A stretch of DNA of 57,239 nt, counting the filler, from Jimgerdemannia flammicorona (Eukaryota), in the NCBI GenBank assembly GCA_003990765.1. It is 3 parts of 3 records of this genome, joined end to end, with 100 filler letters (N's around TTAATTAATTAA, not from the genome) between each part and the next. Parts side by side here need not be neighbours in the genome. Positions count along the whole stretch, not along the records: positions 19,120 to 38,133 come from RBNJ01002051.1; 2 more parts are not named here. One strand, given 5' to 3'. The translations under genes were made by a program, and so were the position numbers. This document shows, piece by piece, positions 10,420 to 41,279 of this stretch. The notes beneath the pieces were generated by a model, which was not told the origin of the DNA, made no database searches, and saw only the letters and a list, made by a program, of their open reading frames with translations. Each line of letters starts with the position of its first letter. Position 1 is the first letter of the stretch.

Positions 10420-10424
10420 GTATC

Positions 10425-15755: not shown

Positions 15756-16211
15756 ATGAATCCCGTCGCCCTCCGGCAGCTCGTCACGACGCCTCTCCGC
15801 TCCACAACGAGCATCCTACCATCATCGAGGCTTGCAATCGCCATCCGCGTGACGCGTCGACGCGACTATGCGACCAAAGCGGAGCAGAAGCCCATGACGC
15901 CGGAGCTGTTCCCGCAGACGGTGGTGCTCTCGAACGGGGCGACGTACATGGTGCGCACGAGCTCTCCGCGCGCGCAGCTCCGCCTCACCAAGGACACCCG
16001 CAACCACCCGCTCTGGAACCCCGCCGTCCTGGCATCCCAACTGTCCGACGAAAACGAGCAGCTCGTCCGATTCACAAAGCGTTTCGGCGACCTCCACGAC
16101 CTGAGCGACGTCTCCGTCATCCAGAGCGACGAGGCCGTCTCCGCCGCTATGACGAAGGCCGTCACCGTATCCACCTCCCCGAAAAAGGCCAAGCCCAAAG
16201 GAAAGAAGTAG
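15756..16211 (+). CDS. MRPL36: Mitochondrial large-subunit ribosomal protein bL31m (fungal MrpL36)
   Basis: Arg/Ser/Thr-rich presequence, then FPQTVVLSNGATYMVRTSSPR..LRLTKDTRNHPLWNP...LVRFTKRFG. Confidence 0.88.
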   Translation: MNPVALRQLVTTPLRSTTSILPSSRLAIAIRVTRRRDYATKAEQKPMTPELFPQTVVLSNGATYMVRTSSPRAQLRLTKDTRNHPLWNPAVLASQLSDENEQLVRFTKRFGDLHDLSDVSVIQSDEAVSAAMTKAVTVSTSPKKAKPKGKK

Positions 16212-16547
16212 AGAGAGGGGGGGGGGATTGGATTTTTCTCCCTTGCTAGAATGGGTTGGATCAATGAACTTTGTAATTGGGAATATATGAAGGTGTATGG
16301 GCCCGTGTTGTATATGCAGATTAGTGAAGCTTTCTGTATCATAGACGTAGAATGACTTCAAGAGTTGGCAGAAAAGATATAAACCAGTGTAAAACGATGC
16401 CCTAACAACCTCGAGCTTTACAAATCCAGACCATCACTTTAAAGACATATCATCCGTTGACGATGCAATACTATTTTTGGCAATTTGTCGTTGTAACTCA
16501 TCCTATTATTATTGCGATTGTACAAATAGTAAAATGGAGTTACAAAA

Positions 16548-17933: not shown

Positions 17934-18137
17934 GGCGCGCCGGCGATGGACATGGCGCGTCGTGATGAATTTATGACATGACGTCAGTCATTATGCAATT
18001 TGAGCAACTGTATATATATAATTAATTATATAAAAAAAAAAGAGCCAGGTGCTCTGGGACTCGGTCATCCATCAGGTGGGTAATTACGTGTTACGGTCAA
18101 CACCAGCTTGGCGGCAGCTAGTCAATAGAGTCTAGCT

Positions 18138-18222
18138 AGCCAATGGAACGGTGTAGGCAGCTATAAGCCAATGGAACGGTGTAGGCAGCTATAAGCCAAT
18201 GGAACGGTGGCGGCAGCTATCC
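18138..18222. promoter_or_regulatory. Three tandem 28-bp units, each with a CCAAT box, in the SET/Dicer divergent promoter
   Basis: agccaatggaacggtgtaggcagctata repeated, with GCCAAT at 18139, 18167 and 18195; nearby TGACGTCA (17979) and TCACGTG (18239). Confidence 0.6.
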
Positions 18223-18337
18223 AAGGGCGGCAGCGGGGTCACGTGGAGGCCAAGCCACGGAATTGTCGAAGATAATTATGGTTCACCCCCACTGCTGTGG
18301 TTGTCAACCCTTGCATGATCTTGACAACCTCAAAATC

Positions 18338-18877
18338 ATGGACATTTCCTTCGCAGAGGCAAAAGCGTTTGCCTTTGGAAAGGCGAAAACCGGCTTCAAA
18401 CGTCACATTGCCCCTTCAACTAACCTTACCGCCTCCAATTCGTCGAAACCCCCGTTGCGCCAGAATGAGGACAACCATACAATCCCACCTGCCCTCAACC
18501 TGCGTTGGGAGAACTTCCCCGTCCCACTTCCACCGTCCCTCCCTCCCGCCGCCCACAAATACAACCCGGCCGCCATCGCCCCCGGTGAAGATTACATGTC
18601 TGCTCTCTCCTCGGACAGCGACACGAACAGTTCCTCACCAGAACCCGCGACGCCCGACCCGGACACCCGCACCCTCAAGGAGGTCGTCGTCCCCGATATG
18701 AAAGAGATCGCCAATGCCCTCGCCCCGCGCCAGTACCAGCTCGAGCTTTTTGAGAAGGCCAAGAATGGGAACATCATCGCCGTGCTCGATACCGGGAGCG
18801 GAAAGACTCTCATCGCCGTCATGCTCATTAAGGAGATTATGACTATCGAGAGAGAGGAGAGGATGAATCGAAGGCTT
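18338..18877 (+). CDS. Dicer-like protein, first exon (start of the DExD helicase); rest lost at contig end
   Basis: [38 protein letters not shown] (Q motif plus Walker A typical of Dicer helicases); GTGAGT donor at 18878. Confidence 0.85.
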
Positions 18878-19019
18878 GTGAGTAGGTGTGGTTAGGGTGA
18901 AGTGGTTGGTGCTGTGGAATTTAAGCCAATTTATAAATTTGTTTTTTGTCTATAATCATTTCATTGCAATGTCCTACCTGTCATCATCCCAACTCGACAT
19001 TTAACCCTCCTCCCCCCCC

Positions 19020-19119
19020 NNNNNNNNNNNNNNNNNNNNNNNNNNNNNNNNNNNNNNNNNNNNTTAATTAATTAANNNNNNNNNNNNNNNNNNNNNNNNN
19101 NNNNNNNNNNNNNNNNNNN
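19020..19119. other. Artificial contig linker (N44-TTAATTAATTAA-N44)
   Basis: Six-frame stop spacer flanked by Ns, exactly 100 bp. Confidence 0.97.
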
Positions 19120-21905
19120 TTAATGGACTTATGTCCTGCAGATTTTTATTGGAAGGGAACCTAGACTATATAGGCCAAAACTCTCCCCCACCACCTATTA
19201 AGTACTGTCCCTCCATTAACCTAGGCTAGCTATTATCCAGTAGCTCAACCATGCTAGGCACAGCAGGGCCTATATTGGCCCATACCTCATTCTGTACACT
19301 ATGCTCTCTCTACCATCAGAGGAAACCCAACCATATGCCAATGACCAAAAGTACATGCCTGAGAACCCAATGTATGTACAAGGCCATGTCTGAGCTGAAT
19401 AGAATAGCCCCTGCTACTCCAAAGAGAATGACAGGCAAAGAAAAAACCCTCATCAAAGTACAACATGGTGGGTAGGGCCTGGTTCTCCCAGTTGAGGTAA
19501 GTAAAGGACTTACATGTGAGGTGAGAGGAGACCTCCAATACCCCACTACTCAAGCCTGTGGGCCTTGATCACATTGCCATATCAGCTCCCAGTTCCAGTT
19601 AAGTGCAGCCAAGATACCTGAAATGGGTAGTCTCAGGCCCCCTGACCCCCTCTGATGACTGGGGCCTAACCTGCCAACCCACCAAAAGAAGCTAAGAGTG
19701 ACACCTACTACCTAACTGCACCACACCAATCAAAAGGCCCCATCAAAGTAGTACCTGCCCCAGCCCTGATGACTGCCTCCAGCCTGGCATCCTACTGGTT
19801 CACTGTTATTGCTCTTCCTCCTATCTGTAATGGCCATCTCCCCTCTCATCCCAACAACATCTAAAAAGCAGTCATCTATGCCAGAACCACACTCACTAGG
19901 AAGCTTGCCAAAGCCAGAGGGCCCCACTACAGGCACTGAGGACCTGCAGGTAACCTACACTGAGCACTTGACACCCAAGGTCAGCCAACTCCCTATATAG
20001 CCTGAGATATACTGAGACAACACCTTGTTGGTGACAGCAAAAGGAAGAAGGTGTCACACCCAAATAGATGCACTCTAGATATAGCTGAAGATATCAGAAA
20101 CTGTGAAAAAGTGAAGAAGATACTGATCAGACACCAATAAAAGGGCAACTCATCACCATTGCCCTCCTCCCACCATGCCCATGCAGGCACAGCAAACCAC
20201 CCCAAGGTAGAGGGGGTAATAATAGGGGAAAGGGGACTCAGAAGGTTGCCTACCAAACCTTGTGACTAGTAAGGTAGCAGAGAAAGGAGTCTGTATATTC
20301 TCATTCTCTATATATTGTATTGGTGACCCCAGAATGATGATATCAGCACAGGAGATAGTCTTTTCTTACAAGCCAAAATATCAGAGCACAAGGAGATCAT
20401 ACGGCATATGAGATGAGCAATGATGACCAACTGTGAGTCATTGTGACCATGGTATGATATCTGGAGGAATATAAAAGAAGAATCAAGAAACTGTAGTAGC
20501 AGTAACCAATAAGACCCACCAATCCCAAAATAGCCCAAAGACTTACTACAAACAAAATGTCTACTGCCTGCCAAACCTCAAGGTCAAGGAACCACTAAGA
20601 TACCTCAGTCAAAGAAAGGATGTTCCAAGACATCAGAAGAGCTATGAGAACCCACTCAAGAAGGACTCCTAGTATTAACCTGGATACTGGTGACCCTTAT
20701 CATTATATTCTCTACTGCTATGAAATGGAAACAAGGATCACTATTACTACCAAATATCTCCAAATGTGGCAGAAGTATAAAATAGGAAACCTCCTCTGCT
20801 GAGAGTTTTCACATACCAGCACTCAAGAGCTACAAGATGCCACTCCCATGGATATATACAAAATGAGGATAGCTAAAAAGATCCATCAGATCTTCAGGCA
20901 TGTACCATGGTTGATCTCCAACTTGGAGTATGTTAGAGTCTCAGATTTCAGAGACCTGTCATCCTGCCATATCAATACACTAGAAGCCAGGGTGGCTACA
21001 AAAGCCCAGTCCACTATCACCCTCAATAGTGATGAAGTAGAAGACTTCTGGCATCCTATCCTCTAGGACAACTCAGACCAATTCCTGCAAGGGTTGATTT
21101 CAGTATTCCAAGGCCTAAGCATCTGGGTTAGACCTCCCCAAGACTCCATATTTGTTCCCTATTTTGTAGAAGAGAAACTCATAGACTGGAGAGCTCCATA
21201 TCTTCTTATTTCTACTACTGCCAAATGTGATAATATCATCAGTAATGACATCATCCTGCATGACTTCGATATATATAAGACATGTGACTTATATGAGATA
21301 CCTAAAGTACCTGAAATGCATGACCTATATAATCTTGACAAAACATTTGTAGACCTCATCTCTTTTGAAGACATCCTGACCTCTGATGATGAGGATGAAG
21401 CCCCTATGGTCTTGAACATTCTGCTCAAAGTCTCTTGTTATACTGGATAATATCAGCATCAGTATTCTGAGGTGATGCAAAATTATTCCAGCACTGACAT
21501 TTGAGGTAATACTGAATAATGCCAGCACCAGTATTTTGATGTGACACCAAATTATACTAGCATCCTGAATCTGTATAACCATTAGTACCAACCCTGGAAC
21601 TTAGTAGTTTTAGCTATTGGAATTTATATTTAGCTTTATATCTTAGCAACTATTGAATTATATTTTGTATAAATACCCCTCTTATTTCCTCTAAAATAAA
21701 GTCTGTTTTGGTTTCACTTATACACACTTCCTTATAAGCAATCTAAGAGATAACAAAACAGTTAAAGATAAGAAGTTTGAGGACTATAAGATCTTAGGAA
21801 GGTACTCCAATAAGAACTTACTTATAACAAACTTGAGTTAGTCTAAGAGATACATCTTGAAGAGAATCTGACATATTTGAAGGACTCAGTGACCACTATG
21901 TGACA
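19120..21905 (+). repeat. Long 5' LTR region of the host element (left end not visible)
   Basis: Ends in CA 3 nt before a TGG PBS; TATAAATA at about 21669 and AATAAA at about 21695; no second copy is available to fix the start. Confidence 0.6.
20620..21450 (+). pseudogene. Accessory ORF upstream of the host PBS (two in-frame stops)
   Basis: ORFs 20620, 20848 and 21094 share one frame; contains YKIGNLL...YKMRIAKKIHQIFRHVPWLISNLEYVRVSDFRDLSSCHINTL and an acidic tail. Confidence 0.65.
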
Positions 21906-21908
21906 ACT

Positions 21909-21925
21909 TGGTGCCCATTTGCTGG
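21909..21925 (+). promoter_or_regulatory. Primer-binding site of the host element
   Basis: TGGTGCCCATTTGCTGG directly after the LTR end; tRNA identity not assigned. Confidence 0.75.
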
Positions 21926-22025: not shown

Positions 22026-23760
22026 ATGGAAATACATCCCCCCACATTCTATAGATATACTACTGAAGAGTCAATCCTGACCTTCATTAAAGACTTTGAA
22101 CAATTCACCACTATACAAACCCTTGGTGTGGATGCACAATTGGCCCTTCTACCAGTCAGCCTCAGAGGACCTGCCAGAGATAAGTTCAATGCAGCCACCA
22201 TTGCTAATGCTAGTGCAGCCAAACTTGCCAACATGAAGACCTTCCTCAGAACAACATACTATACTGAAGAGATCAAGTAAGCTCTCAAGGATCAACTCAA
22301 TACTTTCTGCCAGGGACTTAGTAAAGATCCCAACTCATTCTATACCTGAATCTGCCATCAGATTGTCTTAGCTGGTTATGATGACCACCTCAAGGAATAA
22401 ATAGCAGATTCAACCTTCCTCAAAGGAGTTCACCCTGAAATTGCCTTAGCAATCCAGTCTACCCCAGCTGTACTAACCCTTGATCAGAAAGTAGTCTTTG
22501 TACAGAGATATTGGACTGCCAGATACCCTGCCAAACACTCAATAGAGAAAATAACTAGTATCAAGATGGAGCCATCAAAGCCAACTGGTATCATACCTGC
22601 CACAGTTGTAAATAGACAACTATCCCCACCTACCCCCAAGATAGCCAAAGCTGACCCAGTGGAGGAACTTGTCAAGCAGTTTGCCAAGATGACTGCATAC
22701 CTTGGTGATATTATTAGAGAAGTCTGAAGTACCAACAGGAGACCAGTGCAGAGATTTGCAGCTACTATAGAAGAACACAATATTATATGCTTCAGATGTG
22801 GAGAAGAAGGCCACTATGTAAAGAGTTGCATGACTGAAACAAGATACAAAGCTCAATCAAGTAATGCTAGCAGAACTAGAGAACAAACCAATGCAGTAGT
22901 CATCAAAGAGATTGGTGATACTGATAATGAAGAATACTATGAGGAGCTTGAATTCTACCCAGCTACTGAAGGTACCAGAACCTGGTCCAAGCCCTATGAC
23001 AAGAAGAGCAACAACAAGCCAGTTGGAAGACCAAAGAAGACCCCAGCTGTTACTATTCAAAGCAAGACTCAACCAGAGGAGATTGATCAAGACATAAAGT
23101 TAGATGAAGCTATCTGCCAAATCATAGAAGGCACTACTCCAGTCTCAGAAGAAAGCAAAAGCAAGAAGGAACAGAAGCTGTGCAAGACCAAGATCCACCA
23201 GTATGATATCTACAAGGACCTTAAGGAATAGAAGGTCAATGCTACTTTTGGATAACTAGCCAAAGTCTCTGCCTTTAGACAGCAGTTGAGAGTAGGACTT
23301 GCAACTACTGCCAAGAATCAAGAGTATAAGATTGTAGAAGCTCACAATGTACAGGAAGAATCTGAAAACTCAAGTGAAGAATCTAAGGACCAGCACAAGA
23401 CATCAGCCTATACTCCCTGCTAGATTGAAGACTATATCTTTAATGCCATCATTGATACTAGTGCTGGAGGATGCCTCATAAGCAAGAAGGCAATTGACCA
23501 CCTAGGCTGAGACATTGAAGAGTCCACCAAGATGGTCTATGTTACAGTAGATGGTATATGAACTACCCCCCTTGGCAAAATCCGAGAAGTCCCCATCAAG
23601 ATAGGAGGAGCTACCATCCCAGTAGACATGATTGTTACAAGTACCACCAACTATAACATCCTCATTGGCAACCAATGGCTTCACAAGGCCAAGGCCATCA
23701 TTGACCTCAATGCCCAGAAGATGCAGATCAACTATAGAGGAAGAAAGGTATGAGTCTCTA
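22026..23760 (+). pseudogene. Host gag (capsid, zinc knuckle) and aspartic protease
   Basis: PPTF...FIKDFE...SLRGPARDKF; CFRCGEEGHYVKSC; AIIDTSAGG (DTG decayed); many CAA>TAA and CGA>TGA type stops. Confidence 0.85.
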
Positions 23761-24119
23761 TCAATGTCCACAAAGGAGTTCTACCAGACATGGAGGAAGG
23801 AGATGAAGAGGACACAGAGGTCTTCATATACTCAGTGAATAAGAACAAGAACAAGACACCCAAGCTCACAGATGAGCAGTGGTATAACAAGATCATCAAT
23901 GGCTATGCCCCTCAAGAAAGATGCCCCCATGGTACTAGGATGTACTGCTCTGAACATCTGAATGATGCTGGTCCTATATCAGTGAAGTCAGAAAAATCCA
24001 TTAACAGAAACATAAGCAAGAAGCTGCCGAAGCAAAAAGGAAAGCCAAAGAAGATGACCAGCCCCCAGAGCTTCAGGCTGACAGTGATGATGAGGAGGAA
24101 CAAGAATCATATATTAATA

Positions 24120-24540
24120 TTACCCTCAAGGTCAAGAAGTTTCACCCTGAAGCCAAGATCCCAGAATACAAGACTGAAAGAGTCATAGGAATTGACCTTG
24201 CCAGCATTCAAGATACTACCCTCAAACTACAGACCACCACTCTACTTGGCACTGGAATTGGAGTCAAGCTGCCAGAGAACTATATCAGAATTATCAAGAC
24301 CAGGAGCAGTCTGGCCAAAAGCGAAATCTCAGTTGAAGGAGGAGTAATTGACCCTGATTACACTGGCAAGATCTTTCTTATAGTCAGAAATCACAACCAT
24401 ACCACCCCCTTTGAAGTCAAGAAGTATGACAGGATTGGCCAGATGCTGCTCTATGAAATCAAGAAGCCCAAGATCATAGAAGCTATTGAACTCATCAAGA
24501 CCAAGAGAGGAGAACAAGGCTTTGGATCTACTGGAAGAGG
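24120..24540 (+). pseudogene. dut: Trimeric dUTPase domain of the host element, between PR and RT
   Basis: All five motifs: GIDL, TRSSLA, GGVIDPDYTG, DRIGQM, RGEQGFGSTG. Confidence 0.9.
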
Positions 24541-24709
24541 AGCCTATACTATTATCAAGATTACCGAACTTGAGCATAAGAAAGACAAGGACCAGAATAA
24601 GCACACATATACCATTGGAGAAAACTTTGCCCTGGAGAAATAACTTCTCAAGATCCTGCACCAGAACAAAAGTGTACTTGATATAGACTTTATGGATATC
24701 TACAATCAA

Positions 24710-26772
24710 TATAAGAGGATTGCTTTTTAGAGTAACCGTTATATAGTTCTGGAAGGGTTTTCTGGGAGTTCTGGATATTCTGGAAGACCATTTTCTTATG
24801 GTCAAGATCAATTTCGTATGGAGTATGTCCTCTATGCTTATTGATTTCAAGATCGGATTGACGTCTCAATCCAAAGTCCTTTTTTGGACTAGTTCTGGAT
24901 GTTCAGGATTTTCCGTATTTCAGGAAGTTCAAGAAACTAAGGCCAGTTTAGTTGAATTGGCGTATCGCTGTAGACAATACCCAATTAGGAAATTTCGTGA
25001 GGGAGTTAGGAGTAGGACCTAACAGGGAGCGGATTTACTTAAGAGTGGTTTGTGGGTTATTGAATAGGTTTATTTGCTATTCATGATATTACTATACTAG
25101 GAGTAGTTGTGTGAAGGGATATTGTGGAGAAGTATTCAGGAATGTTCTTGTGTATTTGAGTCTGAGATTCTGAGGTCTGGGGGAGTGGGTATTTATACTA
25201 GTGAGGGGCTATTTGGACTATGCTGAATATGGATGTAGCACTAAGTGCTTTGCTGAGTCGGAATGCAGTCACATAGTACAAGTGTGATCTGACATATCAA
25301 GAGATCATCTGATTGCTGAGTCAGTTCACAGTTATGTCATACAAGGCTAATCTAACTATACTATGACTGCTAGGCTATTTATGGGTTTAGGTGCTGTCTG
25401 GGTAGTCCTCGATGACATCACCATCGATTGTATCATCTCTGATGAAGTAGTCATCTAGAAAGAGTGGTTCACGGATTACTTCTCCTTGTTTGCTGAGGTA
25501 ATAATACATTGGAACTTTATCTCCATCCCACAGGATAGCATCGTCTGTCTCGTAGGCTGGATAAGGTATTGGTGGATGAAGGATGGGTGTATCATCTTCA
25601 CTTTCATTGGATTCACTGTCTGCGTACCTTTTATAGGTTACAGCACTATGAGTTGCAGGATTGTAGTAAGCTGGTAGCTGTGGTTCATGTCATTTGTACT
25701 TAGGTAGTGGAGTGGTTGGTTCAATCTCGAGGGTTGTCTGGAGGTACAGGTTGTGTTCTCTGGTCTCTTCATTGTAGTTGAAGTAATCAGGGGTGAACGT
25801 GGATTGGTATTCATACCAGTGGTCATTGTCCCAATAAGTCTCATATGTAGTTATGAACTGTTGTAAGTTCATTGGCAAGATTGGTGGAGTGATCAGGGTT
25901 GGCAGAGATCCTTGGCTAGAGGTCATATTGGCATCAGAGGGATCATTGTCTTCTGCTTCGTCTTCATCAAAGTGGATTATATCGTAGATGTCCTTCATAG
26001 TGTATCCAACTTGGGACATTTGCAGGATATGATCATTGGGGTGTGAGAAGGTTCTGTCTGTGGTTTCGATATACTCAAGATACTTGTGGTTGAGTTTTTG
26101 TATCATGTCATCGATTTGGCTGTAAGACAAGGTAGCAACCATTTCAGCTGTGGTAACTTGGAGGTGGGGAATAAAGGTGCTATACTCATAGAAGAGTTCT
26201 CAATGTTTGTGGGCAATGAGCTTCTGGTGTTGAGACATCTGGGTAATGTCTATATTGTGGTAGTGTTCGACCATATCTTCCAGGAGGTGGCTGATCTGAT
26301 AGTAGCTTGAGATTTGTCTGATTCGGTGGGCCTTGCTAAGTATGTTCAGGGCGTTCTATCGGGCTTCCACAAGTAGAGGGGTGCTAGGCTATAGATATTC
26401 ATGAGGGGCAGAGGGGGTGTGGCTCAGTTGACAATGGCGTTCCAAATGTCAGCACAAATATGGGTATAGATCTCGGTGGTCATGTTTGTGTGTTTGGAAG
26501 TTTGTGGTTATTGTTTATTTTGGTTCTCTGTTTTGACATATCTTGGTGCTCAGTATATATGCATTTGGTCCTGATTGGCAAGATTCCGTTTGTATAAATC
26601 TTGTGTTCTGTGACTTTGTATTGACTCAGCTTTGTGCACTGTGACTTTGGTTTGACTCAGCTTCATGATCAAGCAGGTGATTTCCAGATTTGTTCAGAGG
26701 TCGTGTGTGATTTCAGTGGCTTGTTCGGAGGGTGACATGTAATTTCAGTGGCTTGGAGGTTGTGTACTTACA
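24710..26772 (-). repeat. 3' LTR of the nested element
   Basis: Near-identical to 33282-35344; preceded on the minus strand by PPT AAGAAGGGGAGAGT (26773-26786); terminal CA mutated to TA. Confidence 0.95.
25387..26483 (-). pseudogene. Approximately 365-codon ORF inside the LTR (U3), sense to the element
   Basis: MTTEIYTHI...SYYQIxHLLEDM...HQKLIAHKHRELFYEYSTFIPHLQVTTAEMVATLSYSQIDDMIQ...FLDDYFIRDDTIDGDVIEDYPDST*; stops and indels differ between the two LTRs, so the consensus appears open. Confidence 0.75.
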
Positions 26773-27209
26773 ACTCTCCCCTTCTTAGCTTTCGATGTCC
26801 TCATCGGGGCCTTCTAATTTTGTTCAGTATTGTTACACCATTTGGGAGGTCAAAAGTCTGGTAAGGTCCATTTTCTCAGAAAGTGGCATGCTCGTAGTAT
26901 AGTTGCCTAACATGTTGGATTCATATGTTAAAGGGTCATGTATTCGATGCTGTGTACCAGAAGTGATTCTGACATCATTCACTGCTGGAGAATTTCCTCT
27001 AAGGAATCTTCTTAAATGTCTATGCCTTGTTTCCCACCAGTGGTACAGGGAGAATAGGCTTGCTTTCAGTTTTGCTATTTTTCCAGGGGTTTGGTATTTT
27101 TGTCTTGTTTTGCTGAGTTCTTGGTTGCAATAATTATAATGTTCAGAAGGATAATATATGGGTAGGTGTGGAGTTTTTTTTTGGTTCTAATTGTTCAAGG
27201 AATTATATT

Positions 27210-28500
27210 CCTGAACTAGATTGGTAGCATTCTGGAGATTGGTCTTGGGCTCCCAGGTTGCATCATGGATCAGATAACCTTTCCATTTGACAAGGTACTC
27301 AGGGTGGTTCTTGTTGCCACCTTTGTTGAGGATTTGTTCAACTTCATACTCTTCTTGGTCATTAATAATGACAGGTGCAGGTGGTTTGGTGGTTCGGTTT
27401 GGGAATAGCTCATCATCGTTCTCATTGTATCACTTGAGACATTGAATATTAAAAACTGGGTGAATCTTAATGGTGTCTGGTAGTACCAATTTGTAAGAGG
27501 TTGGAGAAACTTGTGCAATGACTTCAAATGGTCCAATGAACTTGCTGTTCAGCTTTGTCGATAGTCTATCCTTGAGGTTGTCAACTCGGTATCCTCTGAT
27601 GTCTAGTAGAACCTTTTCTTCAATATCAAAGGTTTCTTCTCGGCAGTGTTGGTTAACATACTGTGACTGTTGTTCTTACACTTGTGATAAATTCTCAATG
27701 GCAATCTGGCTTAGATTACACATTCGGAGTAAGAATTCTTCAACAGCTTCGACTGTAGAGAGTTCATTGGTAGTTCAGATAAGTGTCAAAGGGGTGTTTG
27801 GGTTTTGTCCAGTGTTGGCGAAGAATGGGGTCATTCCAAGAGAGGCTTGCTTGCTATTGTTATAGGCAAACTCAACTGCAGTGAGGTATTCATGCCAGTC
27901 ATCTTGTCTGTAGAAAACATAGTTCCTTAGTATTTGTTCCAGAGTTTGGTTCATTCTTTCAGTTTGGCCATCAGTTTCTGGGTGAAAGGCTGTGGATAGT
28001 GCAAGTTTTGTTCCAAGGTGTTCATAGAGGGCTTTCCAAAAGTGGCTGGTGAATTTTGGATCTCGGTCACTAACAATGATCTTTGGAAGACCATGGTAGC
28101 AGAAGATGTTATCAAACAAGAGTGTGGCTATGTCTGGTGCTGTTGCAGTAGTGGTAGTAGGCATAAAGTGGGCTTGTTTGCTGAGATAGTCTACAAAGAC
28201 AACAATTGCATCTTTCCCATTCTTGGTTTGAGGTAGCTATACAATGAAGTCTATAGAGATTTGTTCTCAATTCACAGATGGTACTGGGATAGGGTGCAGT
28301 AAGCCGGGTTTTGCTAGTGTTGAGGACTTGTTTTGTTGGCAGGCATCACAGGAAGTGATGTAGGTCTTGAGCTAATCTGCCATATGGGGCCAATAGAAGT
28401 TTCGGGAGATAACTTTATAGCATTTATCAAATCCTAAATGTCTAGCTGTAGGGGCATCATGATATTCGAATAGGATAGTCCTTCAGAGGTCTCGGTTGTT
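27210..28500 (-). pseudogene. Integrase plus C-terminal chromodomain of the nested element
   Basis: YHDAPTARHLGFDKC...YWPHM...CDACQQNK (HHCC), ISIDFI, IVSDRDPKFTS, HPETDGQTERMNQ, FIGPFEV, EEYEVEQIL...EYLVKWKGY..HDATWEP. Confidence 0.92.
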
Positions 28501-28649
28501 TGGAACATACAGTCTGTCTTTGTAGTAGATAGCATTGTCCTTCAGTTGGTATTGATTGTACCGGGTATGCTTGTCAGTGTCATCATCATTTAGGATTTCT
28601 TGGAGTACTTGAGCTTCCATATCATTAGCACATGCTGTGATAATTTGTT

Positions 28650-30030
28650 CCATGATGGAGTTTGTAACCAAGGTGAGAGTTTGGATAACTTCTTCGATTA
28701 GTGATCTGGAGATTGTATCAGCAACAATGTTTTCCTTGCTAGAGCAGTACTGGATTTTGTAGTCAAAGTTGGTGAGGACTTTCATCCATCTGGCTTGCTT
28801 TTGAGAAAGGGTAGCCTGGGTCTTGATATTGACTAATGACTTGTAGTCAGTCAATACAGTGAAGTGTACTCCTTCTAGATATGGTCGCCACTTGATCAGA
28901 GTGTCTACAATGACTAGCATTTCCTTCTCATGAGTTGCATAGTTAATTTCAGCATCATTGAACTTACAGGAGTGATAGGCCACAGGGTGTCCTTCTTGCA
29001 TGAGCACTGCTCTAAGAGCTAGATCAGAGGCATCAGTAGTAACTTCATATAATAGGGCTGGATTTGCCACTTGAAGTACTGGAGTGGTTATCAGGGTATC
29101 TTTCAGTACTTGAAAGGCGGTATCTTGTTTGGGTCCCCAAGTTACAAGATTGTTGAAGTCTTTTTCTTGTTTCATGGTCTAGGGTTGTTCTTGTTTCTTG
29201 CTGTGCTTGGTCATTTGGGTGAGGGCAGTAGCAATTTTAGCAAAATTGGCAACAAATCACCTGTAATAGTTTGCTAATCCCAGGAATGACTGGAGGTCTT
29301 TCAGCTTCTTGGGTCTGGGCCAATCCTTGATTGCAGAGATTTTGCTGGAGTCCACTTTGATTCTGTTTAGAGTGACAATATATCTAAGGAATTGAATTTC
29401 TTTCAGGAGAAATTCACACTTGCTGAGTTTTGCAAAGAGTCAGTTTTCTCAGAGTTTTAGTAGTACTAGTTCAAGGTGTTCAAGGTGTTCCTCCAGGGTT
29501 TTACTGAAGACTAGGATGTCATCAATATAGACAACAATGAATTTGTCCAGGTATGGATGCAGAATGGTATTCATCAGTATCTGGAAGGTTGCTAGAGCAT
29601 TAGTTAAGCCAAAGGGCATAACCAGGAACTTGAAGTATCTATAGCAGGTTCGGAAGGCTGTCTTGTAGATGTCTTCTTCTTTCATAGCAATTTGCCAGTA
29701 ACCATTCCATAGGTCAAAGGAGCTCATGAATTGTGGGTTGGTGAGCCTATCAAATATTTCATCAATTCTAAGTAGTGGGCAACAGTTCTTGATAGTCTGT
29801 TCATTGAGATTGCAGTAGTCAATACACATTTGCAGGTCTCCTCCTTTCTTGATAATGAAGAGGACTGGTGCACCATAGAGTGATACACTGGGTCTGATGA
29901 ATCCTTGTTCTAGGAGTTCGTCAATTTCCTTCTTGAGTGTATCAATTTCTCTCAGAGACATATGGTAGATTGACTTGAAGGCTGGTTTGGCATCTGGGAT
30001 AGTTTTGATAGCATGGTCTACTGCTCATTT
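28650..30030 (-). pseudogene. Reverse transcriptase and RNase H of the nested element
   Basis: GFIRPSVS.YGAPVLF, MCIDY, KTAFRT, MPFGLTNA, VVYIDDILVFS; TTDASD, NYATHEKEML, NIVADTISR. Confidence 0.93.
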
Positions 30031-30289
30031 GGGAGGTAGGCCCTTTAGGAGCTTCTTTGGGAATATGTCCCGGAATTTCTGGAGTAGTGGTCTGACATGG
30101 CTGTCAACTTTGGAAAAATCCTCTTCAGAGTTCTCAGGTTCTCCTTTGGATAGGTGGATGGAGATAGCAAAGAGAGGGTATTTTTTGGCCAATTTCTTGA
30201 GTTGTAACTTGTTGATGTGAGTGATCTTTGGTCCAGGGTCACTAGAGTTGAGTAGGTCCTTTTTGCCTTGTAGTTTGAAGTTGTGGCGT

Positions 30290-30630
30290 CCTTTCTTGAT
30301 GGTCAGAGAATGGTTTACCCAATCGATCATGGGGTTCTCTTGTTTTAACCATGGGGTTCCAAGGATGATTTCGTTGTCAGGGAGTGGTATGATCTGGAGG
30401 GTAACATGTACTTGGTAGTCACCAATTCGGAAAGGTAGATTGTGGACTTCTTTGCTAATAACATGTGAGGTTCCATCAGCTATAGCAACTGCTTCAGTTT
30501 GCTGTACTGGGGAGGTGAAGACCTTAAGTCTGTTGGCTGTTTCTTCATTGATGAAGTTTCCTGAGGCACCACTGTCTATCATAATCTTGACAGGTGCTCT
30601 GTTGACAAAAGCCTTAAGGGTGAGCAGTTT
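30290..30630 (-). pseudogene. Aspartic protease of the nested element
   Basis: IMIDSGASGNFI...EIILGTPWL. Confidence 0.92.
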
Positions 30631-30849
30631 GTCTGATCCAATGGTGGTGATTTCGGTTGTTTGAGCTTTCCTTCTGTTGGTTCTTCTTTGAGCCAGTTCA
30701 TTGACACAAGAGAAGCAATTGTCAATCATTCAGGAAGAGTACATTCCAATGCCATGAGGGCATTGGCCACTTGGTACATATCTATCTTCAATCTTCTTGT
30801 AGAATTGTTCTTCTTTGCTCATGGTAGGTTGGGCTGGGGCCTTGTTTGA

Positions 30850-31260
30850 TGAGCCAAATCCTTTGGATCCTTGGATAGTGGGCAGTAATTCAGGGACTTC
30901 CTTGACTGTCAGGGTTGACTTGATTTTTTTGAATAGGATCTGGGTGATGCAGAAACCAATAGGGATCTTGAAGGGTGTCTAACTGTGGTTTCAGATGAGG
31001 ACAATAATTTTGCCTGTATAATCTTCATCAATGACTCCTCCTTCTACTGAGAGTCCTTTTAGTGCTAGGCTGCTGCAACAGCATATTCTTCCAATATGTC
31101 CTTCAGGGATTTGGATACTGATTCCTGTGTAGACTTGTTTGACTTCTCAGTTGGAAACTATAGCTTCTTCAGCTGCATATAGGTCATATCCAGCTGCTTT
31201 CAGACTTCCTTTGGTTGGGGCCTTAGCAGTTTGTCTTAACTTGACAAAGTCCAGTGTTCT
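30850..31260 (-). pseudogene. dut: dUTPase domain of the nested element, between gag and PR
   Basis: FVKL...PTKGS..AAGYDLYAAE, VYTGISIQIPEGHIGRI..CSSLA, GGVIDEDYTG, ITQI, QGSKGFGSS. Confidence 0.9.
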
Positions 31261-31299
31261 GGTAGTCAGGTTATTGAGGTGGTGCAGAGTGGTAATAGT

Positions 31300-33260
31300 T
31301 GCTCTTGTTGCTGTTTGGAGTTTTCGGTTAGGGCAGGCACTGGCCATGTGTCCTGTCTTTCAGCAATAGAAGTATGCTCCACTTCTTCGAAGTTTATTCC
31401 TTTCGCCTTCAGTAAGTTTCTTGAAGGTACTTGGCTGGGTAGGTTCATGATTTCTTGGTGTCCAAGAGGTGGATGTGGAGGGAGCTCAGGATGCTTCCTG
31501 CTTGAGTTCTTCTTTCTTGGTCCAAGTCCTTTCCTTGTTGTTGAATTATCTTTGGGGCAGAATTGGTCCAACTGTTAGGATTCATTTGACCATAGTCTTG
31601 ATTCTCACCAGGTACCATTGTTGGTGGTCACAATCAACTGGGCGGCCTTGTTCTCAGATTTTTCTAGTAAGCCATTCAGGCAGTGCATTGAATAAATGGT
31701 CTGCTCTTGTACCATTTCGTGCTTCATCATTGGCAATGTATCCTAGGCCAACAGTGTTCAGAAGTGACTCGAGTTTTATACAGAAGGTTTTGAATTCTTC
31801 TTTACCATATACATCAAATTTGAAGTTGCGGAGTTTTACTCAAGATTCAGCAATCATGGTTTCGCTGCAGTATTGGGCAATCATGAGTTATTTGAGTCCA
31901 GGGGCTGCAGGATGGGCTCCATATCCTGGGGCATTGTTTGCTGCATTCTGAGCAACTACTGCAGATCGGGTATCCCATGTGAGGGGTTTTTCAGAAAGGA
32001 TTTGCCACCATTCTTCAGCAGGTCCTCAGAAGAATGTAACAACTTGGTAGACATAGACTGTAGTGGTAGCAAAGAGTTGTTCCAGAGTGTGGTCTTGATT
32101 GTTTGTCAGAATGTGTTCAGCAACTTGCTCATTGGTCCATTGATTGGCTTCGAAGTTGGTATCAACTATACTAATGAAGCTTTGGACTTCTTGTGCAGTA
32201 CCATTGAAGGTAAGTAGACTCAGATTTTTTGTAGGTTGGGTCTGTTCAGCTAAGGCAGTAATGGTTGCTGCTATTATAGCTACTTGGGCTGTGAGATCAA
32301 GAATCTGTTGATTTGCCATGTTGTTTACTGGAGGTGCTTGGACTGCTGGTAGTGGTATTACTGGTACTACTTGAGGTACTGGTGCAGAGTGTGATGGAGT
32401 TCTTTGGGTCTGTGTAAGTTACTGGAGTAGTATTTGTGGGTCTGGAGTAAGGGCTTAATAGATAACTATTTGTTGCTGTGTAGGTATATTCTGTCCTGAT
32501 GGAGGTGTGTCTCCTTCAGTAGTGTATCCAGGATTGAATTCAGTGAGATACTCCTCCTCTTCTTCAGTTTGGTCCCCATGTAATTGGGTTTGCTCGGTGT
32601 CAAAGTAGATGGAATCAGTTGTATATCTGATTTCAGATGGACTTAATTCAAAGTCAAGTTCAGGTTCAGTATTGGTTTCAGATTCAGGTAGGGCTGTAGC
32701 AGGGCCTGCTTCAGATTCAGGATCAGGTAGTTGATGAAGGGTTTCTCTTGCTTCTTCTTTAAGAATATGGCAGGCCTTGCTATTCTGGAATCAGTAGTAT
32801 AATGCGGTCTTGGTCCTGGTACGGTGAAAGTCGGTAGAGTTGAGCCACTTGGCTATAGAGGCTTGGGCTTCATGAGGAACTCAGGCTAGAAAGACTACTG
32901 CTGGTTGTCCTAGGTTGCTCGGGTTTGTAGAGCTGACAAAACTCTTGTTGAGAAGAGTAAAGAAGACTTCAATAAGACCTTCTTCATCTTGACTTGCTGG
33001 GTGTAGTGCAAGGAGTTCGGTGAATAGGATTTCACCTATTTGCTGATTTAACCAGAGTACTTCTTTCTTTAAATGAAGTTTATCCCACTTGTTGCAGGTG
33101 TGGAGGTCAAATTGTCCTTGTACATCAGGTTCAATTCTCTCCAGATTGTCGGATGGTTCAGGATAAATTCCAGTTCAGAGGTTGGGCTTTATACCAACTT
33201 GTAGGAATTCTCAGAAGGGTTTGTAGTGGAGTGAGGAAGCATCTTGAAGCAGAATTGGAT
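31300..33260 (-). pseudogene. gag of the nested element with a long N-terminal extension
   Basis: LLTFNGT..EVQSFI, FF*GPAEEWW, (C)FYC*KTGHMASAC knuckle; the frame extends about 315 codons upstream of Met 32319 to the PBS, with scattered stops. Confidence 0.8.
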
Positions 33261-33262
33261 TG

Positions 33263-33278
33263 TAAACTGCTGCTACTA
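33263..33278 (-). promoter_or_regulatory. PBS of the nested element (initiator-Met-like, TGG mutated to TAG)
   Basis: TAGTAGCAGCAGTTTA 3 nt after the LTR end; TGGTAGC is the usual iMet PBS start. Confidence 0.65.
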
Positions 33279-33281
33279 AGT

Positions 33282-35344
33282 TGTAAGAGAGTTGCTTTTT
33301 AGGGTAACCATTACGTAGTTCTGGAAGAGTTTTCTGGGAGTTCTGGATATTCTGGAAGACCATTTTCTTATGGTCAAGATCAATTTTGTATGGAGTATGT
33401 CCTCTATGCTTATTGATTTCAAGATCAGATTGATGTCTCAATCCAATGTCCTTTTTTGGACTAGTTCTGAATGTTCAGGATTTTCCGTATTTCAGGAAGT
33501 TCAAGAAACTAAGGCCAGCTTAGTTGAATTAGTGTAGTGCTGCAGACAATACCCAATTAGGAAATTTCGTGAGGGAGTTAGGAGTAGGACCTAACAGGGA
33601 GCGGATTTACTTAAGAGTGGTTTGTGGGTTATTGAATAGGTTTATTTGCTATTCATGATATTGCTATACTAGGAGTAGTTGTATGAAGGGATATTGTGGA
33701 GAAGTATTCAAGAATGTTCTTGTGTGTTTGAGTCTAAGATTCTGAGGTCTGGGGGAGTGGGTATTTATACTAGTGAGGGGCTATTTGGACTATGCTGAAT
33801 ATGGATGTAGCACTAAGTGCTTTGCTGAGTCGGAATGCAGTCATGTAGTACAAGTGTGATCTGATATATCAAGAGATTATCTGATTGCTAAGTCAGTTCA
33901 CAGTTACATCGTACAAGGCTAATCTAACTATACTATGACTGCTAGGCTATTTATGGATTTAGGTGCTGTCTGGGTAGTCCTCAATGATATCACTATCGAT
34001 TGCATCATCTCTGATGAAGTAGTCGTCTAGGAAGAGTGGTTTGTGGATTACTTCTCCTTGTTCGCTAAGGTAATAATACATTGGAACTTCATCTCCATCT
34101 CACAGGATAGTATCGTCTGTCTCGTAGGCTGGATAAGGTGTTGGTGGATGAAGGATGGATGTATCATCTCCACTTTCATTGGATTCACTGTCTGCATACC
34201 TTCTATAGGTTACAGTGCTATGAGTTACAGGATTGTAGTAAGCTGGCAGCTGTGGTTCATATCATTCATACTCAGGTGGTGGAGTGGTTGGTTCAATCTC
34301 AAGAGTTGTCTGGAGGTACAGGTTGTGTTCTCTGGTCTCTTCATTGTAGTTGAAGTAATCAGGAGTGAATGCGGGTTGGTTTTCATGCTAGTGGTCATTG
34401 TCTCAATAAGTCTCATATGTAGTTATGAACTGTTGTAAGTTCATTGGCAAGGTTGGCAGAGTGATCAGGGTTGGCAGAGATCCTTGGCTAGAGGTCATAT
34501 CGGCATCAGAGGGATCATTGTCTTCTGCTTCATCTTCATCAAAGTGGATTATATCATAGATGTCCTTCATAGCATATCCGACTTGGGGCATTTGCAGGAT
34601 ATGATCATTGGGGTGTGGGAAGGTTCTGTCTGTGGTTTTGACATACTCAAGGTACTTGTGGTTGAGTTCTTGTATCATGTCATTGATTTGGCCATAAGAC
34701 AGGATAGCAACCATTTCAGCTGTGGTAACTCAGAGGTTGGGAATAAAGGTGCTATACTCATAGAAGAGTTCTCGATGTTTGCAGGTGATGAGCTTCTGGT
34801 GTTGAGACACTGGGTAATGTCTGTATCATAGTAGTGTTTGACCATATCTTCCAGGAGACAGCCGATCTGATAGTAGCTTGAGATTTGTCTGATTCGGTGG
34901 ACCTTGCTAAGCATGTTCAGGGCATTCCATCGGGCTTCCACAAAGTAGAGGGGTGCTAGGCTATGGATATTCATGAGGGGTAGAGGGGGTGTGGCTCGGT
35001 TGACAATGGTGTTCCAAATGTCAGTATGGATATGGGTATAGATCTTGGTGGTCATATTTGTCTGTTTGGAAGTTTGTGGTTATTGTTTGTTTTGGTTCTC
35101 TGTTTCGACATGTCTTGGTACTTGGTATATATGCATTTGGTCCTGATTGATAAGATTCTGTTTGTGTAAATCTTGTATTCTGTGACTTTGTATTGACTCA
35201 GCTTTGTGCACTGTGACTTCGGTTTGACTCAGCTTTGTGATCAAGCAGGTGATTTCCAGATTTGTTCAGAGGTCATGTGTGATTTCAGTGGCTTGTTTGG
35301 AGGGTGATATATAATTTCAGTGGCTTGGAGATTGTGCGCTTACA
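33282..35344 (-). repeat. 5' LTR of the nested element (contains a second copy of the LTR ORF, about 33959-35055)
   Basis: TGTAAG...CTTACA termini; matches 24710-26772 with mostly transition differences. Confidence 0.95.
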
Positions 35345-35349
35345 ATCAA

Positions 35350-36828
35350 GAACCCAAGTACTACTATGAAGTTGACACCAGTGATATCAAGCCCATCTAC
35401 CAGAAAGCCAGACCCATACCACTTGTTTACAGAGAGTAGCTGCAAGCAAAACTCAAGGAAATAGAAGAAGCTAGAATCATCAAGCAAGCTATCAGCCCCT
35501 GGACTTCACCCATTGTCCTTGCCCTGAAGAAAGAAAGCAAGCCTGGAGAGTTTGTGCCAAGACTCTGCATTGACTACAGGAAGCTCAATGCCATCACCAA
35601 GAAGGATAGGCAGCCCTTGCCAAATATTCAAGAAATTCTTACCACTCTTGGAAGTGAAGCCAAATACTATACCACCTTGGATCTGTTCTTAGGCTTCCAT
35701 CAAATTGGTCTCACTTAAGATGCTAGTGAGAAATCAGCCTTCATCATATCTGATGCCACCTATATCTACCTGCAAATGCCATAATGCCTCAGTAAGTTTC
35801 CAGTGAATGATAAATAGAGTCTTCAGCAATGAGATTGGAAAATGGCTCTTTGTCTATATTGATGATGTGATCACCTTCGGCAACACTATATGAGAACATA
35901 TCAATCACATACAGCTAGCTCTCAAGAAGCTCAAGGAGTATGGCCTCTACATCAAGCCCAAGAAATACAAGTTTGCAGCTCAAGAAATTGCCTATCTAGG
36001 ACACCTCATCAACCAGACCAGAATCCACACAGACTCTATGAAGATCGAGGCTGTTGTAGCCTACTCAAGACCCAGAACAACCACAGAAGTCCATGCCTTC
36101 CTTGGACTGGCCAGCTACTATAGAAGATTCATCAAAGGATACTCTAACATTGCAGCACCTATCTACAAGCTACTGAAGAAGGAAATAAAATTTGAATGGA
36201 CCAAGGAGCACCAAGAAACCTTCAATGAACTCAAGACCAGGTTGACCCAAGCACCTATCCTCAGAAGACCAGACTGGAGCCTAGAATTCATCCTGTAAAC
36301 AGATGCAAGTGCAATAGGACTTGGAGCAGTTATAGCTCAGAAGAAAGATAGATATGAATATGTTATCTCCTATGCAAGCTGAGGTATCCATAGAGCAGAA
36401 CAGAACTACAAGTTATGCAAGCTTGAATACTTAACAGTAATTTGGGCAGTAGACAAGTTCCACTACTACCTAGCTAGGAAACACTTCACCATTCAAACAG
36501 ACCATTCCACCCTTGCCTGGCTATTCCACACTCTAAATCCCAAAGGAATATATACCAGATGGATCTACAGGCTGCAAGAGTATGACTGTACTGTCAAGTA
36601 CTACTCAGGAAAGACCAACACCAATGCTGATGCACTCTCAAGAACACCCCGAAACACCCCCATCAAGACTATTCAATATGAATAAGGAGCTATACTATGG
36701 ATTAATTAGCTACCTTGGGAAGCAGAAGATGCCCAACCACCTTGAACTCTGGACAATCACTATCATCAACCAGACTTGGAAACAGTTTGAATTAGACAAT
36801 ACTATACTCAAAAAAGGACGAAAGCTAG
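35350..36828 (+). pseudogene. Host RT, RNase H and first part of the integrase region
   Basis: EVDTSDIKPIYQK, SPWTSPIVL, RLCIDYRKLNAIT, FVYIDDV, AFLGLASYYRRFIKGYS, TDAS, TDH, NADALSR. Confidence 0.9.
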
Positions 36829-38106: not shown

Positions 38107-38133
38107 TTTGGGGGCTCAACTGGGAAGATTTCA

Positions 38134-38233
38134 NNNNNNNNNNNNNNNNNNNNNNNNNNNNNNNNNNNNNNNNNNNNTTAATTAATTAANNNNNNNNNNN
38201 NNNNNNNNNNNNNNNNNNNNNNNNNNNNNNNNN
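38134..38233. other. Artificial contig linker
   Basis: N44-TTAATTAATTAA-N44. Confidence 0.97.
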
Positions 38234-39367: not shown

Positions 39368-41279
39368 TTTAAGCACACAATCTCTAAGCTACCGAAATTG
39401 TATATCACCCAAAGAACAAATCTGGAAATCTTATATAAGATTATAAAACTAAGTTAAATTGAAGTTATAGATCATAAAGCTGAGTCAACTTGAAGTCATG
39501 GAATACAAGATACATGAAAATAGAATCTTATTAATATAGAGTGAAAGTATATATATTAGACATATAGCAGATTAAAGAAATTATAACAAATTAAAATTAT
39601 AACTACAACTCTCAAACATATATTCAGATATGATCACTGAAGTCTATAATTACATCTATGCTAACATTTGGAATATCATTATCAATCAAGTCATAGTATA
39701 CTTTTTTCTTATAAATATCCATATCTTAGCACTTCTATTTCATAGAAGTATAATGAAATACTCTGAATATACTTGGTAAGACCTATTGAATTAAATGAAT
39801 TTCAAGCTACTATCAGATCAGCTATCTTTTGGTAGACATAGTTAACTACTATATTACAGACATCACCAAAATGTCTCAATACCAGAAGCTTATCATTTGC
39901 AAATACTGAGAACTCTTTAACAAGTAGAGTGACTTTATTTCTCACCTCTGACTTACTATTAATATAATGGTTACTATACTGATCTGTGTCCAAATTAATA
40001 ATATATTATAAGAACTTAATTATAAATATATCAAGTATACCCATACTACTAATAGACTCTTTCTACATCCAGATGACTATATCCTACAAATGTCTTAAGT
40101 GGGATATACTATGTAGAATATCTATAATATATAATTCTGTTCAACAATAATGAAATAGAAGTCAATAATCTCTCTAGCATAGAAATGACCTCTAGATAAG
40201 AATCTCTGACATCCTGATTACTCTAACAATATTATTAATAAACTTATGATAGTTCATAACCATCTACAAGATCTATTAGAATAATGACCACTGGTATAAA
40301 TACCTGTATTTATATTCAACTACTTTAACTATAATGAAAATAAAAGAGAATTCAACCTATACATCCAAACAACTCTTGAGATAGAATAAATGACCCTACC
40401 TCCTGAGTATAAGTACTATAACTAACTAAAGGTATGTGAATAGTAAATCTGATTGAAATATTCTATTAATACTATATCTAGCTTAAGAAACTAATAATAC
40501 TATCTTGTAGAATAACAACTTTATTCTAATATACTACTATATAAATAAATAGAGAGATATAATCCAAGAACCACTCTTTTTAGATGACTACTTTATTAGA
40601 GATGATATTATCAATAGTATTCTTATCAAAATGTATTCAGATAGTATCTAAACTATAATAGTTTAGAAGTCATTAGTATAGTTAGATTAGTCTTATACTA
40701 TATAACTGTATACTGCCTCAGTAATTAGTTGATCTCTTGACATATCAGTTCACACTTATACTATATAACTGTATTCAGATTTATCAAGTACTAATGTACT
40801 ATATCTATATTTAGCTTAGTCCAGATAGTTTCTCATTAGTATAAAGACTCCCTCTTCTAGAACCCAGAAGTTTAGTAAAAAATATAGTTAAGAATACTTA
40901 TTTATCTAAATATCTCTTTATCCAACTACTTTTAGTATTAGTTAATAGTATTATTATAAATAGTAAATAAACTTATTTAATAAATCCTCAATCACTCTTA
41001 AGTAACTTTGTACTTTATTAGGTCCCACTTCTAACTAAATCCAAAAAATTTCTAATTGGATATTCTCTTTAATAATTTACTGATGCAACTAAGCTGGTCT
41101 TATTTCTTAATCTTTCTGAAATAAGGAAAATTCTGAATATCCAGAATAAGTCCAAAAAGAACTATAATTGAGATATCAATCTAATCTTAAAATCAATGAA
41201 ACAGTCTTTCAGAATATCCAGAAATTCCTAAAAATCTTCTAAGAACTAAGTAAAGATACTATAATAAAGTATTCTTATA
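39368..41279 (+). mobile_element. Hypermutated AT-rich copy (probable solo LTR) of the nested element's LTR family
   Basis: Collinear with the reverse complement of 33282-35344 from taagcacacaatct to aagaact...tcttata, including LTR-ORF remnants (tcaagctactatcagatcagc, ttagatgactactttattagagatgat). Confidence 0.88.

Follow-up and report, generated by a model that had tools for sequence, protein, structure and literature searches.

We analysed a window of 57,239 nucleotides (nt) of Jimgerdemannia flammicorona DNA (assembly GCA_003990765.1), which consists of three contigs joined by runs of N at 19020-19119 and 38134-38233. On the second contig a Ty3/gypsy chromovirus, hereafter the nested element, has inserted into a second Ty3/gypsy element on the plus strand, hereafter the host element, and each of the two carries an open reading frame (ORF) in or beside its long terminal repeat (LTR), upstream of gag. 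An earlier note on this DNA, made from the sequence alone, had grouped these two ORFs with a third on contig 1 into one family of accessory proteins. Our analysis supports a narrower statement: judging from sequence comparison, the ORFs of the nested and host elements are probably two functional orphan accessory genes, embedded in the U3 regions of two distantly related elements.

The nested element was delimited by its LTR pair (blastn), a target-site duplication (TSD), a polypurine tract, a site resembling a primer-binding site (PBS) and its Pfam domains. Its main features, together with a further copy of its LTR on contig 3, are as follows.

24705..35349 (minus strand): nested Ty3/gypsy chromovirus, including its TSD
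33282..35344 (minus strand): 5' LTR, 2,063 bp, with the PBS-like site ACT TAGTAGCAGCAG then at about 33264-33281
24710..26772 (minus strand): 3' LTR, 2,063 bp, TG...CA, with the terminal CA mutated to TA
33959..35055 (minus strand): U3 ORF, 5' LTR copy, running from 35055 to 33959
25387..26483 (minus strand): U3 ORF, 3' LTR copy, with ATG at 26483 and stop at 25387-25389; the ancestral frame has 365 codons and a stop
26554..26559 (minus strand): TATATA, a motif match in both LTRs, about 76 nt 5' of the ATG of the ORF
25191-25197 and 25069-25074 (minus strand): TATAAAT and AATAAA, found by regular expression at LTR offsets 1577 and 1700 and identical in both LTRs
39370..41253 (plus strand): third copy of the nested element's LTR, 67-73% identity (blastn), heavily C>T/G>A-mutated, in a region of 25-30% GC

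The 5-bp duplication TTGAT flanks the element at 35345-35349 and 24705-24709, and the polypurine tract AAGAAGGGGAGAG lies just before the 3' LTR. Pfam places the domains in the order gag, dUTPase, protease (PR), reverse transcriptase (RT), RNase H, integrase (IN) and chromodomain; the matches to PR, RVT_1, RT_RNaseH, rve, SH3_Tf2-1 and Chromo follow one another in that order on the minus strand, which is the pol arrangement of a chromovirus. The two LTRs are 92.97% identical over 2,063 columns (blastn), and 138 of the 143 substitutions between them are transitions. Soil-metagenome contig sets contain both elements in many copies, most of which have G or C at places at which the window copy has A or T. 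No RNA run was among those listed as containing the LTR, which says nothing on expression; the four runs compared with the window are contig sets with no RNA library on record, three of them marked as probable DNA and one of unrecorded kind. One metagenome contig passes from 24709 directly into sequence matching 35350 onward, and copies of the host element without the insertion therefore exist.

The 365-codon frame in the nested LTRs is a reconstruction, obtained by aligning the two LTR copies with each other. It had been described as a sense ORF of about 365 codons inside each LTR, and in this the frame is right, but neither of the copies in the window is open. Direct translation of 26483..25387 starts correctly (MTTEIY...) and leaves the frame after about codon 38. 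Of the four in-frame stops in the 3' LTR copy, those at codons 20, 43 and 95 are private to it, and of the five in the 5' LTR copy, those at codons 109, 218, 223 and 319; each copy also has a 1-bp deletion of its own, at about 26371-26373 in the 3' LTR and at about 34810 in the 5' LTR. Seven of the eight internal stops, and both deletions, are confined to one LTR, and every private stop is a C>T or G>A change at a CGA, TGG or CAA codon. Lesions confined to one LTR must have arisen after insertion; at insertion, therefore, the ORF was open or, with codon 265 as the possible exception, interrupted by one TGA at most.

Two proteins of public assemblies bear out this reconstruction. P0014 (128 aa) is intact, begins at the same methionine and reads through both the start and the frameshift site (E=4e-15), and P0006 (247 aa) supplies the rest of the ORF, to the same ...YPDS(T/I) end and with in-frame gaps only (E=2e-98; 63% identity by BLASTP, 64% in the alignment). 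Because these proteins read straight through, the reconstructed frame is confirmed. The base lost from the 3' LTR copy is also present in some of the metagenome copies (place 26370).

Within the LTR, the ORF occupies offsets 291-1387 and ends about 190 nt upstream of the TATA box. The segment 25069..25197, which contains TATAAAT and AATAAA, is the putative core promoter and poly(A) signal. Because both motifs lie downstream of the stop codon, the ORF is placed, in sense orientation, wholly within U3, with the U3/R boundary set by these motifs. The TATATA at 26554-26559 is a candidate internal promoter.

In the third LTR copy the ORF is still recognisable, by a match of its hidden Markov model (HMM) at 39799-39906 (E=2.3e-7). 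This copy is probably a solo LTR, since no adjoining internal region matches the nested element. It is harboured by a tract of 25-30% GC (38234-42000, contig 3) whose decay looks like repeat-induced, transition-driven mutation, far heavier than that of the nested copy.

The host element is split by the insertion, and its features were assigned as follows.

20620..21450 (plus strand): host-element ORF, 277 codons with 2 internal stops; possible earlier start near 20557
21668 and 21695 (plus strand): TATAAAT and AATAAA, found by regular expression, the TATAAAT 218 nt after the ORF
21905 (plus strand): putative LTR end ...ACA, from the sequence read as ACA / ACT / TGGTGCCC... at 21903-21916
21909-21925 (plus strand): PBS-like TGGTGCCCATTTGCTGG, read from the sequence, with gag ORFs beginning just downstream
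22728..24704 (plus strand): internal region left of the insertion, with CCHC gag, PR and dUTPase
22728-23228 (plus strand): gag zinc knuckle (Pfam)
23424-23750 (plus strand): PR (domain search)
24005-24640 (plus strand): dUTPase (domain search)
35350..36682 (plus strand): internal region right of the insertion, with RT and RNase H

The order gag-PR-dUTPase-RT in this element contrasts with gag-dUTPase-PR-RT in the nested one, so that the dUTPase stands on opposite sides of PR; that the domain orders differ had been read from the sequence alone. The two share 30.8% identity in RT (91 residues), 30.5% in RNase H (95 residues) and 36% in dUTPase (47 residues), and by these values they are only distant relatives. 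The ORF that had been called upstream of the host PBS does exist: it lies 5' of the TATA motif, the PBS-like site and gag, and has two internal stops. These motifs would put it inside an LTR, in U3.

Seven relatives of the host ORF were found, namely P0007-P0012, at 55-67% identity, and the fragment P0016. P0009 starts 21 codons earlier than the host ORF, an extension that one stop codon closes in the window. Five of the relatives share the position of the stop, after DEDEAPxxLN(F/I)LL, despite differing insertions and deletions upstream; a common stop behind such variable sequence would be difficult to explain unless the frame were under selection. P0012 diverges in this part and looks frameshifted.

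Some smaller observations concern the sequence around this ORF and the two LTRs. The stretch immediately following the host ORF (21437-21600) varies in length among copies, with many different skips of 34-85 nt in metagenome contigs, at low depth, and its translation contains repeated 'QHQY..V..NY' units. A 12-nt string at the TATA box, GTATAAATACCC, is common to both LTRs (25186-25197 on the minus strand, 21666-21677 on the plus strand; blastn E=4.3, not significant), as is the style of the junction at the LTR end, ACA / ACT / TGGT..., with TAGT in the nested 5' copy. Beyond the host RNase H, the stretch 36683-38133 contains a repetitive, SAPSELSELSA-like segment in one frame.

We scored coding potential with codon log-odds trained on the Pfam-supported pol and gag pieces of the elements, in-frame against out-of-frame, with stop codons excluded. 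The claimed frames score +0.158 and +0.165 in the nested copies and +0.100 in the host ORF, and all of their other frames are negative (-0.266 and -0.178 for the 3' LTR copy; -0.196 and -0.108 for the host ORF). For comparison, gag pieces score +0.137 and +0.144. Of the four non-coding LTR flanks, three do not exceed 0 in any frame, the non-coding parts of the nested LTR being negative in all three; the segment 21451-21909, after the host ORF, is slightly positive in two (+0.029, +0.053 and -0.131). The codon-frame signal, taken with the existence of open, diverged relatives, therefore supports the prediction that both ORFs are real protein genes.

Those relatives, nine in number (P0006-P0012, P0014 and P0016), came from word-index searches and from an exhaustive search of 1.84 billion representative sequences. 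The exhaustive profile search returned P0006, P0014 and one artefact only. The artefact, P0015 (436 aa; E=5.6e-10 to the LTR-ORF profile), was rejected as a relative, as six near-identical 72-residue tandem repeats inflate its score; it also gives low E values against 24 unrelated Pfam families without any individually significant stretch. A scan of Joint Genome Institute (JGI) metagenomes with the LTR-family alignment gave 38 pattern matches, none of them confirmed. With the host-family alignment the same scan gave L001 (32% identity over 78 residues), which we regard as spurious: it lies on an AT-rich contig with no ORF of at least 60 aa listed at the match and no repeats.

No named family had been recognised for these ORFs, and none emerged here, whether from Pfam, PDB or the clusters of the ESM Atlas. 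P0006, P0007 and P0014 match no Pfam family up to E=5, and the joint profile matches no PDB sequence up to E=1. In the ESM Atlas the best feature score is 0.83 (P0009), P0006 has no usable match, and structural template modelling (TM) scores are at most 0.33.

The predicted proteins have a common character. Six family proteins have isoelectric points (pI) of 4.05-4.64 and net charges between -20 and -38, and their Kyte-Doolittle hydropathy, averaged over 19 residues, peaks at 0.48-0.97, which indicates no membrane-type segment in either family. The host family combines an arginine-rich N-terminus (net charge +5 to +8 over residues 1-40 in P0007 and P0009, the two relatives that are complete at this end) with an acidic C-terminus that has an LxxLL-type motif at its end, and the tails of both families mix acidic with bulky hydrophobic residues. 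AlphaFold2 (AF2) models have helices in the first 100-160 residues or so, followed mostly by coil.

We also asked how far the two ORFs resemble each other. The cores had been aligned by eye, and that register (YxIGxLL, then A.K...F......IP.L, then LS...I) is reproduced by both MAFFT and hhalign, although only marginally above chance. Starting from both N-termini, hhalign aligns 106 collinear columns (score 24.0, P=0.016, probability 2.8%); the reversed template scores 15.9, and one of 186 column-shuffled templates reaches 24.0. The Smith-Waterman score of P0014 against P0007 is 49, a value that 19 of 3,000 shuffles reach; among 370 real six-frame chunks taken from the window, none does. Against four host-family proteins (BLOSUM62) the shuffle P values for P0014 are 0.004, 0.034, 0.074 and 0.038. 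In a search of 1,364 sequences with the host-family HMM, P0014 was the first non-member (E=0.07; next E=1.6). We put the existence of a shared N-terminal domain of about 110 residues in the nested and host ORFs at about even odds. If the domain is shared, exchange between elements would explain it more easily than vertical descent, because RT identity is only about 31%.

The interpretation we favour is that in each of two unrelated Ty3/gypsy elements U3 contains a genuine gene for an accessory protein, most likely a trans-acting regulator or adaptor; as a prediction from sequence, we give it a probability of about 0.45. Because U3 is copied to both ends of the element, the genomic RNA would have the gene at its 3' end, as with the sag gene of mouse mammary tumour virus (MMTV), and a spliced or subgenomic RNA may serve for its expression. 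Alternatively, the ORF may be driven by a promoter within the first 250 nt or so of the LTR and use the LTR's own poly(A) signal; each LTR, even a solo one, would then amount to a small gene. The mixture of acidic and bulky hydrophobic residues in the tails suggests an activation-type tail on an N-terminal binding part. Such a product would act in trans as a regulator or adaptor, its N-terminal binding domain joined to the acidic tail in a manner analogous to foamy-virus Tas, and would boost or protect transcription of the element.

A number of findings pull the other way. The TGA at codon 265 of the nested ORF is common to both LTRs, so the window copy may have transposed with a truncated ORF. 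The databases searched contain called ORFs only, and the intact relatives were in that sense ascertained for being open. The window contains neither a second LTR nor a clear 5' LTR boundary for the host element, and no integrase was found in the 1.45 kb (36683-38133) that follow its RNase H up to the end of the contig, the element being either truncated or interrupted there. The helical N-terminal domain is a weak prediction, because the mean predicted local distance difference test (pLDDT) value of the AF2 models is only 31.7 and 35.3 for the two families. The regulatory function is something that we infer from composition and position only. Comparisons between the two ORFs contribute further negatives: in BLASTP the window copies match each other at E=0.9 or worse; hhalign gave no signal before P0014 supplied the N-terminus; the N-terminal HMM of the LTR family fails to retrieve the host family; phmmer with P0014 finds P0007 at E=0.56, with the next match at 0.71; neither full-length nor C-terminal tests reach significance (P=0.07-0.5); for the C-terminal halves by themselves P is 0.08, the real score being attained by 13 of 219 shuffles; and the LTRs have no DNA similarity to each other, the best blastn match having E=4.3.

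In a rival reading the ORFs are passengers without present function: old captured sequence, or once-coding LTR filler or promoter DNA, whose open relatives are young or were picked out by the gene caller. All window copies are broken, one stop (codon 265) is shared by both LTRs, the families are tiny (nine proteins among 1.84 billion representatives and the word-index searches), and neither ORF has a fold or family match in Pfam, PDB, the Atlas or AF2. We nevertheless hold this to be unlikely, since relatives at 55-67% protein identity retain the frame, the start and the exact stop across several in-frame indels, the codon-frame signal is equal to that of gag, and the same layout (ORF, about 200 nt, TATA) recurs in two elements whose RT identity is about 31%.

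If the proteins are real, they need not regulate transcription. They might instead work in the particle, for instance as an acidic chaperone or adaptor of Gag or of integrase, or against host defence, by countering chromatin silencing or C>T mutation; a composition that is highly acidic and probably disordered would suit such roles. A role against mutation would fit this genome, where repeats are heavily transition-mutated (138 of 143 LTR differences), the LTR copy in the 25-30% GC tract has decayed to 67-73% identity, and both elements encode a dUTPase, a further accessory function, related to uracil in DNA. None of these roles in particular is favoured by a motif, fold or partner, however, and the window copies themselves were not protected from mutation; we therefore think such non-regulatory roles, taken together, improbable as well.

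A bolder version of the interpretation that we favour makes the long LTRs self-contained genes, each with a promoter upstream, an ORF of about 280-365 codons and its own poly(A) signal. They would encode an acidic, fast-evolving regulator, and unrelated Ty3/gypsy lineages within one genome would have exchanged its N-terminal domain. A trans-acting factor, either controlling LTR transcription or countering silencing, would then come from full elements and from the many solo LTRs alike, and the system would be a retrotransposon counterpart to the accessory genes of complex retroviruses. We regard it as quite doubtful.

The earlier note went further, to a single helical accessory family kept in or beside the LTRs of three retrotransposons, the third member being assigned to an ORF upstream of gag in an element on contig 1.

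10425..10905 (plus strand): contig-1 ORF pieces, the proposed and unsupported third member

The only signal for this member is a 25-residue ungapped match to P0014 (LN...A.....I......GR.L.E) with a raw score of 40, rank 5 among 370 window chunks; the reading as a whole also has on its side the nested-host register that MAFFT and hhalign recover weakly above chance. The 25-residue match is not collinear with the second block of the by-eye alignment unless a stop and a frame change are allowed. The other scores are at noise level, with BLASTP E values of 2.5 and 0.9 against the two families and merged-HMM E values of 56 and 110, within the bulk of 1,355 ORF pieces, and we have dropped the contig-1 ORF as a family member. 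The element around it is likewise unverified. Contig 1 (1-19019) has the Pfam domains of ordinary host genes (prefoldin, GTPase, QCR9, UBR box, RING, bL31 and the Rubisco-LSMT-type partner of SET), with the UBR-box/RING gene just upstream of the proposed ORF; no RT, IN, RNase H, PR or any other retroelement domain was found in the selected ORFs of at least 75 aa that were scanned against 53 + 34 references, and no LTR pair was found on this contig. Non-significant HMM-HMM scores among the three ORFs had been named in advance as grounds for abandoning the family, and the three-way family does fail in that comparison: the nested-host signal is weak and N-terminal only, reciprocal tests fail, and no relation of the contig-1 ORF to the other two could be detected. 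We consider the three-element family very unlikely; as a caution for similar work, a family was over-called here by aligning the amphipathic helices of three ORFs by eye.

Least tenable of all is the idea that the conservation of the proteins is a by-product of constraint on overlapping cis-acting U3 DNA such as enhancers: U3 is indeed regulatory DNA, and the ORF covers more than half of it, but constraint in cis cannot keep 250-365 codons open or fix a stop after indels of variable length, would not give a frame-specific codon signal, and is at odds with the lack of DNA similarity between the two LTRs.

The remainder of contigs 1 and 3 yielded further observations. At 6555-6914 there are eleven overlapping repeat copies with a 27-nt (and 9-nt) period, in the same region as the UBR-box ORF; this is probably a coding low-complexity repeat. 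Between 11150 and 15350 a row of plus-strand ORFs lies on an A-rich strand, with DUF7746 (E=0.038) as the only Pfam match. One ORF piece there is retropepsin-like in look (..VQLDMAADVSIIS.. / ..LLGYPEL..), with no RT, IN or LTR near, and may be what had been taken for gag or PR in the earlier note. On contig 3, the 15 kb or so from 42000 to 57239 have a GC skew that is both extreme and uniform (+0.32 to +0.53 per 1-kb bin) at a GC content of about 50%. Tandem repeats were looked for in this segment and none was found; it contains an RT domain on the plus strand at 54965-55684, and 11 other long ORFs tested there have no Pfam match. It is an unusual retroelement-bearing tract with strand asymmetry.

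If the two U3 ORFs are expressed, LTRs, including solo LTRs, could be protein-coding units, and pipelines for transposable-element annotation that mask LTRs as non-coding would miss genes. Their products would also be candidate means by which retrotransposons cope with the mutation and silencing of repeats by the host.

Accessory genes are usually taken as dividing complex retroviruses from simple LTR retrotransposons, and to our knowledge MMTV sag is the only textbook case of a gene that lies wholly inside U3. The sag gene, from a betaretrovirus, encodes a type II membrane glycoprotein. The ORF of the nested element resembles it in size (about 320-365 codons), in sense orientation, in lying entirely in U3, in ending 5' of the LTR promoter and in being duplicated at both ends. 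The ORFs described here differ from sag in their products, which are strongly acidic and have no hydrophobic segment (the highest 19-residue Kyte-Doolittle mean is 0.97), in having no Pfam similarity, and in belonging to Ty3/gypsy retrotransposons and not to a betaretrovirus.

Foamy-virus Tas/Bel1 and the other 3' transactivators of complex retroviruses offer a second comparison, as accessory genes that are 3'-terminal and near or overlapping U3. To this may be added the combination of an N-terminal binding part with an acidic, activation-type C-terminal tail, which for the LTR ORFs is a proposal, and the possible internal promoter just 5' of the nested ORF (TATATA, 76 nt before the ATG). The likeness is one of layout and composition only, and no sequence or fold match accompanies it (Pfam up to E=5, PDB up to E=1): P0006, P0007 and P0014 have no Pfam family and the joint profile has no PDB match, so that nothing assigns the proteins to the Tas/Bel1, Tax or Tat families.

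In the openly accessible literature that we searched, we came across no description of a conserved LTR-internal ORF in Ty3/gypsy elements, whether fungal or otherwise. The crapaud LTRs have variable 5' halves, and the account consulted describes no LTR ORF (PMC10787394). Fungal Ty3/gypsy chromoviruses carry dUTPase at varying positions in Pol, much as its position varies between the nested and host elements, and an 'additional ORF' has been reported among them; the account, as far as it goes, describes no ORF inside an LTR (Novikova et al. 2010, PMC2864245). The sharing of extra ORFs has a precedent in bdelloid rotifers (Rodriguez, Kenefick and Arkhipova 2017), where ORF3s located between pol and the 3' LTR are shared among diverse LTR retroelements, several of them with dUTPase, and where a sharing of genes has been argued; in the account cited, the homologues of these ORF3s include GDSL esterase/lipase, DEDDy-type exonuclease and env-like proteins (PMC5408684). 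The ORFs in the present window differ from those in lying inside the LTR, in lacking a known homologue and in that their sharing is unproven, and they resemble them, as far as that account extends, in being extra ORFs beyond gag and pol that occur in unrelated LTR-retrotransposon lineages of a single genome (PMC5408684).

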